Source: a virus
DNA: 14,789 bases
Direction: 5' to 3' (one strand)
IMG/VR virus record: IMGVR_UViG_3300031673_000984
The notes beneath the pieces were generated by a model. That model ran no database searches. It was given only the letters and a program-made list of their open reading frames with translations, and was not told the DNA's origin. A program made the position numbers and the translations under genes. Below are positions 6,982-7,054 of this stretch, one piece after another. The number at the start of each line of letters is the position of its first letter. Position 1 is the stretch's first letter.

Positions 6982-7054
6982 CCCTCCCGGCCGGACTCGA
7001 ACCGGCGACCAACTGTTTTAGAGGCAGGTGCTCTACCAACTGAGCTACAGGAGG
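6982..7054 (-). tRNA. 73-nt tRNA gene with the predicted anticodon CUA (amber suppressor type). The anticodon stem has only 3 Watson-Crick pairs, and no CCA is encoded.
   Basis: Minus-strand sequence: CCTCCTG-TA-GCTC-AGTTGGTA-GAGC-A-CCTGC-CTCTAAA-ACAGT-TGGTC-GCCGG-TTCGAGT-CCGGC-CGGGAGG-G. Acceptor stem 7 bp (one GU). D-arm GCTC/GAGC with loop AGTTGGTA. T-arm GCCGG/CCGGC with T-loop TTCGAGT. Anticodon loop cU-CUA-Aa with U33 and A37. Anticodon stem pairs 27-43 and 31-39 are mismatched. Confidence 0.7.

Follow-up and report, generated by a model that had tools for sequence, protein, structure and literature searches.

The stretch of viral DNA analysed here, IMG/VR record IMGVR_UViG_3300031673_000984 (14,789 nucleotides, hereafter the window), carries on its minus strand a tRNA gene with the amber-reading anticodon CUA and a gene for a PTH2-family peptidyl-tRNA hydrolase whose tenth codon is an in-frame TAG. 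We consider it likely that the tRNA is a functional, UAG-reading elongator whose main, and possibly only, target is the UAG just after the PTH2 start. By its sequence, the window belongs to the genome of a huge bacteriophage related to LR756500 (462 kb) and LR756501 (735 kb), and the pair formed by a CUA tRNA and an amber-gated PTH2 gene recurs in the genomes of dozens of huge phages, cultured ones among them. The elements at the centre of this proposal are the following.

6978–6981, minus strand: 3′ trailer CAAA directly after G73 of the tRNA, common to most of the phage's other tRNAs and to the tRNA-Asn of phage LR745206
6982–7054, minus strand: tRNA gene with anticodon CUA (amber suppressor), type I with a 5-nt variable loop, called by ARAGORN and Rfam
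7057–7082, minus strand: 8-bp G+C-rich hairpin without a U-tract, ending 2 nt before the 5′ end of the tRNA, seen in a fold of 6975–7090
7955–8317, minus strand: PTH2-family peptidyl-tRNA hydrolase gene, consisting of ATG, eight sense codons, TAG, ATT and the domain, from Pfam, profiles and the sequence
8288–8290, minus strand: in-frame TAG, codon 10 of PTH2 (the proposed amber gate), followed by ATT and the same in six assemblies

ARAGORN and Rfam agree on a tRNA with a CUA anticodon, and every structural detail of the initial annotation, which was made from the letters of the window, proved correct. ARAGORN reported one tRNA in the window (6981–7054, minus strand, cta at position 34). The 73-nt gene matches Rfam model RF00005 end to end (model positions 1–71) with 62.7 bits (E = 7e-12) against a threshold of 29; with its complete cloverleaf and a score above the family gathering threshold, it has the form of a canonical elongator tRNA. 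In the Rfam alignment, the acceptor stem is paired, U6·G67 included, and position 1–72 is C-G as initially described. The D-arm is GCUC-AGUUGGUA-GAGC, in which the 8-nt D loop (AGUUGGUA) contains G18 and G19; the T-arm is GCCGG-UUCGAGU-CCGGC with a canonical T loop, and the discriminator is G73. The 7-nt anticodon loop, CUCUAAA (C32 U33 C34 U35 A36 A37 A38), has both U33 and a purine at position 37. The anticodon stem (C27·U43, C28-G42, U29-A41, G30-C40 and C31·A39) has three Watson-Crick pairs and a mismatch at each end, exactly as first noted. Neither the Rfam alignment nor the fold of 6975–7090 offered an alternative structure that would shift the anticodon. The hairpin that precedes the tRNA in the same fold could act in RNA processing or stability, or stop the open reading frame (ORF) upstream of it in a leaky manner.

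ARAGORN and Rfam found no second RNA gene in the window, and the statement that this is the only one holds to that extent, but at least 14 more tRNAs of the same phage are found on L002, some 10 kb upstream of the end of the window, where overlapping metagenome contigs extend the window sequence to 26.6 kb. These other tRNAs score between 28.8 and 71.7 bits, so that the CUA tRNA is among the best and above most of them. An identical CUA tRNA is present in three other independent assemblies (L010, L011 and L012), that is, in four in all. None of the phage's tRNA genes encodes CCA, and N73-CAAA follows most of them (L002:435–2593); the CUA tRNA would therefore need CCA addition after transcription. 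The tRNA-Asn of the unrelated huge phage LR745206 also has the CAAA trailer, which may be a common 3′ processing signal.

When 669 phage tRNAs were compared without the anticodon loop, the nearest body proved to be this same tRNA-Asn(GUU) of LR745206, which shares the stem core and, except for a compensated 1–72 pair, the acceptor stem. Two special identities were rejected. The label ‘Pyl’ given by ARAGORN is its name for any CUA anticodon, and the marks of tRNA-Pyl (a 6-bp anticodon stem, a 3-nt variable loop, a reduced D loop and a non-canonical T loop) are replaced here by a 5-position anticodon stem, a 5-nt variable loop, an 8-nt D loop with GG and a canonical T loop. Likewise, an initiator tRNA reading UAG would be expected to show a C1xA72 mismatch and three G-C pairs at 29–41, 30–40 and 31–39, and the tRNA has instead a paired C1-G72 with U29-A41, G30-C40 and C31·A39.

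The PTH2 gene starts ATG AAA AAA GCA GAC GAA GGA TTC GGC TAG ATT AAT CAA AAA CTA, with its ATG at 8315–8317, and the in-frame TAG that had been pointed out in it is indeed there, identical in six assemblies. A 120-aa gene call in ENA had suggested a TAG-free variant (L015); this was rejected, as the DNA is identical and the gene caller had read through the TAG. Pfam PF01981 matches with 38.2 bits against a cut-off of 23, the domain starting three residues past the TAG, and a profile of five homologues matches the PDB PTH2 chains 24bt, 2zv3, 1rzw and 1q7s with E-values of 2e-5 to 1e-3. Beyond the TAG, the next canonical start is a TTG at 49 codons, inside the PTH2 domain, and the first ATG lies at 59 codons. 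The same genome therefore contains, in PTH2, a gene that needs UAG as a sense codon.

This arrangement is conserved. Scanning IMG/VR with conserved PTH2 peptides yielded 80 loci, many on contigs of 200–480 kb, and 58 unique gated homologues in which ATG and zero to eight further codons precede the TAG. The leader is usually one to four codons long, the ATG included, as in four huge phages from GenBank, namely LR756500 (MK#IN..., where # is TAG), LR756501 (MS#IY...), LR745206 (MNN#IN...) and LR756504 (MT#IT...). The base after the TAG (+4) is a purine in all 58 genes (A in 46, G in 12). The codon after it is mostly one for Ile or Val: ATT in 35 genes, GTA in six, GTT in five, ATA in four and eight others once each. 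Further TAGs occur inside the gene in four homologues (LR756501, L160, L153 and L213), where they occupy polar positions that vary; the second TAG of LR756501, for instance, stands where relatives have E, D or V. These internal TAGs align with variable E/D/K/T/Q positions, a mixture compatible with more than one amino acid at TAG. When 185,579 species genomes were searched for the gated subfamily, four matches were obtained, all on contigs of metagenome-assembled genomes, and one of these contigs (L239, 425,361 bp) has the same length as the viral contig L171. On this comparison, the gated PTH2 is a divergent subfamily essentially confined to phages, with a predicted hydrolase activity.

A G+C-rich PTH2 subgroup lacks the TAG and begins MATIKMGDKLY. 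In phages of this TAG-free kind (L200, L207, L210, L213 and L217–L219), we observed tRNAs with an odd loop containing UUCA 0.3–2 kb downstream of PTH2. The loop of one of them, parsed by hand, has 8 nt, and ARAGORN gives the anticodons as ‘tc’ or ‘ttca’ with the label Glu|SeC; these tRNAs may be opal-suppressor-like or four-base decoders. Separately, four loci (L147:1715, L151:5249, L177:5184 and L214:4987) contain, just upstream of the intact PTH2, a second ORF in which the amber gate and the first ~20 PTH2 residues are followed by 220–330 unrelated amino acids. This looks like an insertion or a partial duplication of the 5′ end of PTH2.

The gate and the tRNA are linked both physically and phyletically. 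First, ARAGORN found 74 CUA tRNAs among the 360 tRNAs of the 80 PTH2 loci, every one of them on the PTH2 strand and many only 10–200 nt before or after the gene. Second, among deduplicated loci, a CUA tRNA accompanies PTH2 in 54 of those with the TAG and is missing from nine, several of which are incomplete sequences, while two of the TAG-free loci have such a tRNA and ten do not (Fisher 5.6e-6, although the loci are phylogenetically related and the counts uncorrected, so that our Fisher values are no true probabilities). Third, the tRNA nearest to PTH2 is a CUA tRNA in 49 of 72 loci, compared with a CUA share of 68 of the 319 tRNAs present there. In the window, no terminator-like site was found on the minus strand between PTH2 and the tRNA, so that the two may be co-transcribed. 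The view that this is a phage suppressor tRNA decoding UAG, which was the first of two readings initially offered, is thus strengthened by the co-occurrence of TAG and CUA tRNA across dozens of huge-phage lineages.

The linked CUA tRNAs vary widely in sequence, even among close relatives. As far as the sequences tell, what is conserved is some CUA tRNA beside PTH2 and not one particular tRNA, and such diversity of tRNA bodies would fit a gate at the N-terminus that tolerates any inserted amino acid. Several loci have two CUA tRNAs that differ in acceptor stem and discriminator base, a hint of two amino-acid identities among them, and a 349-kb IMG/VR contig (L023:320–1384) has two different CUA tRNAs in tandem, about 500 nt from a phage tmRNA gene.

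The same arrangement is found in cultured phages. In Mycobacterium phage Bxz1, an in-frame ATG-TAG stands directly before the PTH2 gene gp154, and a ‘tRNA-OTHER’ gene 342 nt downstream is a CUA tRNA; this PTH2 is present in some 207 mycobacteriophage records. Tenacibaculum phage pT24 (L226) has a gene starting ATG AAA TAG ATA..., in which one gate precedes fused PTH2 and HD domains, and a gene annotated as tRNA-Sup lies 2.5 kb upstream. About ten other lineages have, next to PTH2, a separate HD-domain gene with its own leader of ATG, two to four codons and TAG (L020:3995; L174, L175, L181, L185, L187, L190, L202, L206 and L216 at ~5406–5412). This HD gene belongs to phrog_14850 and has a weak Pfam HD match, and there are conserved residues between its TAG and the first ATG. 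For the jumbo phage XacN1, whose authors found no target gene for its suppressor tRNAs (PMC5852040), we considered ORF295 as a gated PTH2 and rejected it: its start is a plain ATG and it has the form of a canonical PTH2, and the two CUA tRNAs of XacN1 are not explained by the gate.

Might the tRNA instead serve late or structural genes outside the window under a general recoding of TAG (code 15), with PTH2 as one target among many? Phage suppressor tRNAs are best known from TAG-recoded phages (10.1101/2021.08.26.457843), the 24 genes of the window end in TAA 16 times, in TGA seven times and in TAG once, the four homologues with internal TAGs would be readily accommodated, and ~27 kb of the genome has been seen. 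Even so, we regard this explanation as unlikely. The window, with a G+C content of 33% and densely packed minus-strand genes, reads well under the standard code, and throughout the 26.6 kb PTH2 is the only interrupted gene and the only one that needs TAG to be decoded. Two ORFs of 109 and 96 aa in the same frame, split by TAG-ATT-ATG at the distal end of the merged contig, were considered as a second recoded gene and rejected, the second ORF having its own ATG and the look of a separate membrane protein. The one gene of the window that ends in TAG (ORF 7088–7303, stop at 7088–7090) reads TAG TCT TAG, with the second TAG at 7082–7084 and a TAA five codons after it, so that suppression would add at most eight residues.

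The relative LR756500.1 allows the question to be put to a whole genome of 462 kb, which has 26 tRNAs, a tmRNA and exactly one CUA tRNA, situated 782 nt away from PTH2. Read with the standard code, it has a coding density of 0.856, which rises to 0.870 if TAG is taken as a sense codon and to 0.876 if TGA is. The gain of 1.4 points for TAG is thus below that of the TGA control, whereas the published criterion for recoded phages is a rise of at least 5–10% when TAG is read as sense (PMC10879173), together with the fragmentation of many genes under code 11. TAG ends 24 of the 475 long ORFs of LR756500.1, no junction of the form coding-TAG-coding was found in it, and N-terminal TAG gates are not enriched (four, against six and two for the TAA and TGA controls); PTH2 has the only clear in-frame TAG of this genome and is its only convincing N-terminal gate. 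Across 63 related loci, the gain with TAG as sense (0.050) is no larger than that with TGA as sense (0.060). Genome-wide recoding, which the initial annotation implied, is thus seen neither in the 26.6 kb nor in the complete relative.

A second alternative dispenses with the tRNA altogether. The ATG...TAG could be an upstream mini-ORF, with termination at the TAG, after which ribosomes would re-initiate on the neighbouring AUU, AUA or GUG, and the CUA tRNA would then have another role. There is a classical link between peptidyl-tRNA hydrolase and minigenes such as lambda bar. In 41 of the 58 genes, the codon after the TAG is a possible start, mostly near-cognate (ATT, ATA, ATC, ATG or GTG), so that termination and re-initiation are possible for those, and the annotated start of Bxz1 gp154 is the GTG directly after its TAG. 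We nevertheless think this alternative improbable. In 16 genes, the codon after the TAG is unable to start translation (GTA, GTT, ACN, AGC or AAN), while the Ile/Val character of the position is kept at the amino-acid level; translation through the TAG therefore fits better than re-initiation. Moreover, the presence of the TAG tracks that of the CUA tRNA, the internal TAGs of four homologues are inexplicable by re-initiation, and the stop near the start is TAG in all 58 genes, although our scan took TAA and TGA as ORF boundaries and could detect TAG gates only.

The possible starts after the TAG and the annotation of gp154 also weigh against read-through as the general rule, and other points lie on the same side of the balance as these and the shared ancestry of the loci. 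The nine-codon leader of the window is atypical, being the longest among the 58 genes. PTH2 often lies in or near tRNA clusters, which inflates co-localisation. Finally, the part of this phage genome examined is ~27 kb, and other TAG-containing genes may exist.

The second reading initially offered was that the RNA is a mimic of tRNA. In that case, it would be a Y-RNA-like ligand of a TROVE/Ro60 protein, or a ligand of a vault-like particle, with its decoding function lost. This idea draws on two further genes of the window.

1217–2851, minus strand: TROVE+vWA protein (TEP1/Ro60-like), from domain matches
12220–14655, minus strand: major-vault-protein homologue, from Pfam MVP_shoulder (7e-28) and Vault_3 (1e-11)

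A tRNA-like domain is part of bacterial Y RNAs (YrlA), and in the YrlA/Ro60 system, as in the window, an RNA of this kind and a TROVE protein are encoded in one genome region. In YrlA, however, a Ro-binding helix replaces the anticodon arm and the gene is beside rsr, whereas the RNA of the window is a full tRNA, complete in its cloverleaf and intact in its anticodon arm at 62.7 bits, and lies 4 kb from the TROVE gene with nine genes between them. Across genomes, the tRNA is linked to PTH2 and not to TROVE: TROVE is within 6 kb of PTH2 in 5 of the 80 related loci, and LR756500.1, in which the tRNA and the gated PTH2 are both present, gave no TROVE match. No Rfam match to a Y RNA was obtained in the window at E up to 1, nor any to another non-tRNA family, and the intergenic region by TROVE (3446–3919) gave no strongly structured RNA (z = -2.1, mostly due to a terminator). 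A linkage of the tRNA to the major-vault-protein gene was also rejected, as no tRNA lies within 20 kb of that gene in LR756500 or LR756501 and the tRNA follows PTH2. A role as a mimic for Ro60/TROVE or a vault thus finds no support, and we consider it very improbable.

The same applies to the suggestion that the anticodon stem is ‘degenerate’ in the sense of decay. Among 63 unique PTH2-linked CUA tRNAs, pairs 28–42, 29–41 and 30–40 are Watson-Crick in 97–100%, with all four pair types represented, and these core pairs covary. In the same set, pair 27–43 is Watson-Crick in just 40%, and pair 31–39 is mismatched in 35% and G-C in none. In a sample of phage CUA tRNAs drawn from IMG/VR with a pattern unconstrained at positions 31 and 39, C31·A39 occurs in 22 of 83 unique CUA tRNAs, as opposed to 3 of 291 other tRNAs of the same loci (Fisher 5e-13), and the 22 have unrelated acceptor and D arms. 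CUCUAAA is likewise the commonest loop of phage CUA tRNAs (82 of 85 in one set, 48 of 63 in another). Since weak 27–43 and 31–39 ends recur in this way, a three-pair core with soft ends is normal for natural amber suppressors; on these comparisons, the weak stem of the tRNA in the window is a family trait and not a sign of decay. It is in keeping with the idea that decoding is tuned by the 31:39 and 32:38 pairs, the former adjusting the flexibility of the anticodon arm to weak codon–anticodon pairing (review PMC11231383). That the gene is a decaying pseudogene derived from a tRNA-Asn, with CUA by chance, is scarcely credible: its two anticodon-stem mismatches, its lack of an encoded CCA and its closeness to the huge-phage tRNA-Asn(GUU) would suit such an origin, but all tertiary and loop signatures are intact, the score exceeds those of most other tRNAs of the phage, the mismatch pattern is enriched in CUA tRNAs, the missing CCA is common to the phage's whole tRNA set and the CAAA trailer to most of it, and the gene is identical in four assemblies.

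How might the gated PTH2 gene and its tRNA work together? A ribosome starting from the PTH2 ATG would meet UAG after one to nine codons. If release factor 1 (RF1) won the competition there, only a tiny peptide would result; if the charged phage tRNA(CUA) won, the ribosome would read on and produce full-length PTH2. Synthesis of PTH2 would thus depend on the suppressor being transcribed, processed, CCA-tailed, aminoacylated and abundant enough relative to RF1, and in many relatives the neighbouring or fused HD-domain phosphohydrolase would be gated likewise. At the extreme N-terminus, an aborted attempt would be cheap and any inserted amino acid could be tolerated. We speculate, as the purpose that we favour, that the gate serves as a delay or checkpoint that ties enzymes of the tRNA pool to a working set of phage tRNAs. 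It is also possible, by analogy with prfB, that it forms a circuit that senses termination capacity. More tentatively still, and with rather more doubt than confidence, we suggest that huge phages, cluster C mycobacteriophages and pT24 have a dedicated two-part switch, in which a private suppressor tRNA exists only for the gate of PTH2 (and often HD) and imposes a checkpoint, holding back enzymes that remodel the tRNA or peptidyl-tRNA pool of the cell until the phage tRNAs have been processed and charged and can outcompete RF1.

Further genes of the window are the following.

7088–7303, 7300–7617 and 7734–7958, minus strand: three small ORFs between PTH2 and the tRNA, from the ORF list, with no Pfam or PHROG match
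8592–9440: radical-SAM gene
9491–11190, minus strand: four tandem paralogous genes (113–169 aa) beside the radical-SAM gene

The four paralogues have a common N-terminal motif, H-S-x-x-D-L-I-T-N-S-S-T-E; none has a convincing Pfam match (one is sub-threshold), and a PHROG scan of 9829–10320 gave no match. Besides the radical-SAM protein and the PTH2-type hydrolase, the window encodes a thioredoxin and a cold-shock protein. Its major-vault-protein homologue is 49–53% identical to genes of LR756500 and LR756501. Searches of IMG/VR with peptide patterns of this protein returned no confirmed relative, megablast of the window against GenBank phages returned no match, and an exact 27-mer taken from the tRNA gave no hit in IMG/VR. 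LR756500.1 also has a PARP-catalytic protein (L008:12505–13800), with an N-terminus that is WGR-like by eye, about 7.5 kb from its major-vault-protein gene. Huge phages would thus appear to have a vault-like gene set, comprising the major-vault-protein homologue and the TROVE+vWA protein and, in LR756500.1, the PARP-catalytic protein; a paper on bacterial homologues of the major vault protein makes no mention of phages. About 1–2 kb past the high-coordinate end of the window, a region of ~800 nt (L002:7876–8676) has no ORF in any gene-strand frame and no Rfam match at E<0.1, and may be a structured RNA or a regulatory region. On the same contig, L002:4940–5016 resembles the bacterial small signal recognition particle RNA with 36.6 bits, just below the threshold of 40, and may be a phage-encoded version of it.

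Phage suppressor tRNAs and regulatory recoding were already known; what appears to be new here is the linkage of an amber-gated PTH2 to its own suppressor tRNA in standard-code phages. Our literature search, outside which most subscription journals fell, found nothing that connects PTH2 with an amber codon or a suppressor tRNA. The targets of suppressor tRNAs in standard-code phages had been puzzling, and this analysis proposes a conserved target for one large group of them. It also suggests that stop-codon reassignment may serve just one or two genes and need not be genome-wide; if the proposal is true, these phages would provide a natural single-gene expansion of the genetic code that acts as a regulatory circuit in otherwise standard-code genomes. 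The annotation of hundreds of phage PTH2 genes, now truncated, mis-started or missed, would be corrected, and the recurrent weak stem ends of natural amber suppressors may help in the design of suppressor tRNAs. Bxz1-like phages growing on Mycobacterium smegmatis are one tractable system in which the gate can be tested.

Among known systems, the nearest are the crAss-like, Lak and other phages with suppressor tRNAs and stop-codon recoding (code 15 or 4) (Borges et al., 10.1101/2021.08.26.457843; Peters et al., PMC9523058). These likewise use a phage tRNA(CUA) for in-frame UAG in a standard-code host, and recoding has been proposed there as an expression gate. However, they have many structural and lysis genes with scattered TAGs, and their coding density collapses under code 11, whereas the phage of the window reads normally under code 11 and would have a single enzyme as target (with HD in some lineages), a TAG at codon 2–10 and a linked tRNA. 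The anticodon arm recalls the E. coli suppressors supE, supF and su7 and the ‘extended anticodon’ of Yarus, in having C32, U33, A37 and A38 in the loop and a weak 31–39 pair that suits an A/U-rich anticodon. Laboratory suppressors are single-base anticodon mutants of cellular tRNAs; in contrast, the tRNA of the window is a natural gene, and its C·A at 31–39 is found in about one quarter of phage CUA tRNAs.

Two further cases of early stop codons also invite comparison. In prfB, which encodes release factor 2, an early in-frame UGA is overcome by a +1 frameshift, and the gene senses its own product. PTH2 would resemble it in having an early in-frame stop in a translation-factor gene, with synthesis set by competition at that stop, but the resemblance would be one of function only: rescue of PTH2 would come from a dedicated suppressor tRNA, and PTH2 itself recognises no stop codons. 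In lambda bar, as in the gated genes, an ORF of two to four codons ends in a stop and there is a link to peptidyl-tRNA hydrolase; short peptidyl-tRNAs tend to drop off the ribosome. The bar minigenes, however, are separate and toxic and end in UAA, whereas the PTH2 leader shares the reading frame of the hydrolase that follows it, its stop is UAG in every case, and a matching tRNA is encoded close by.

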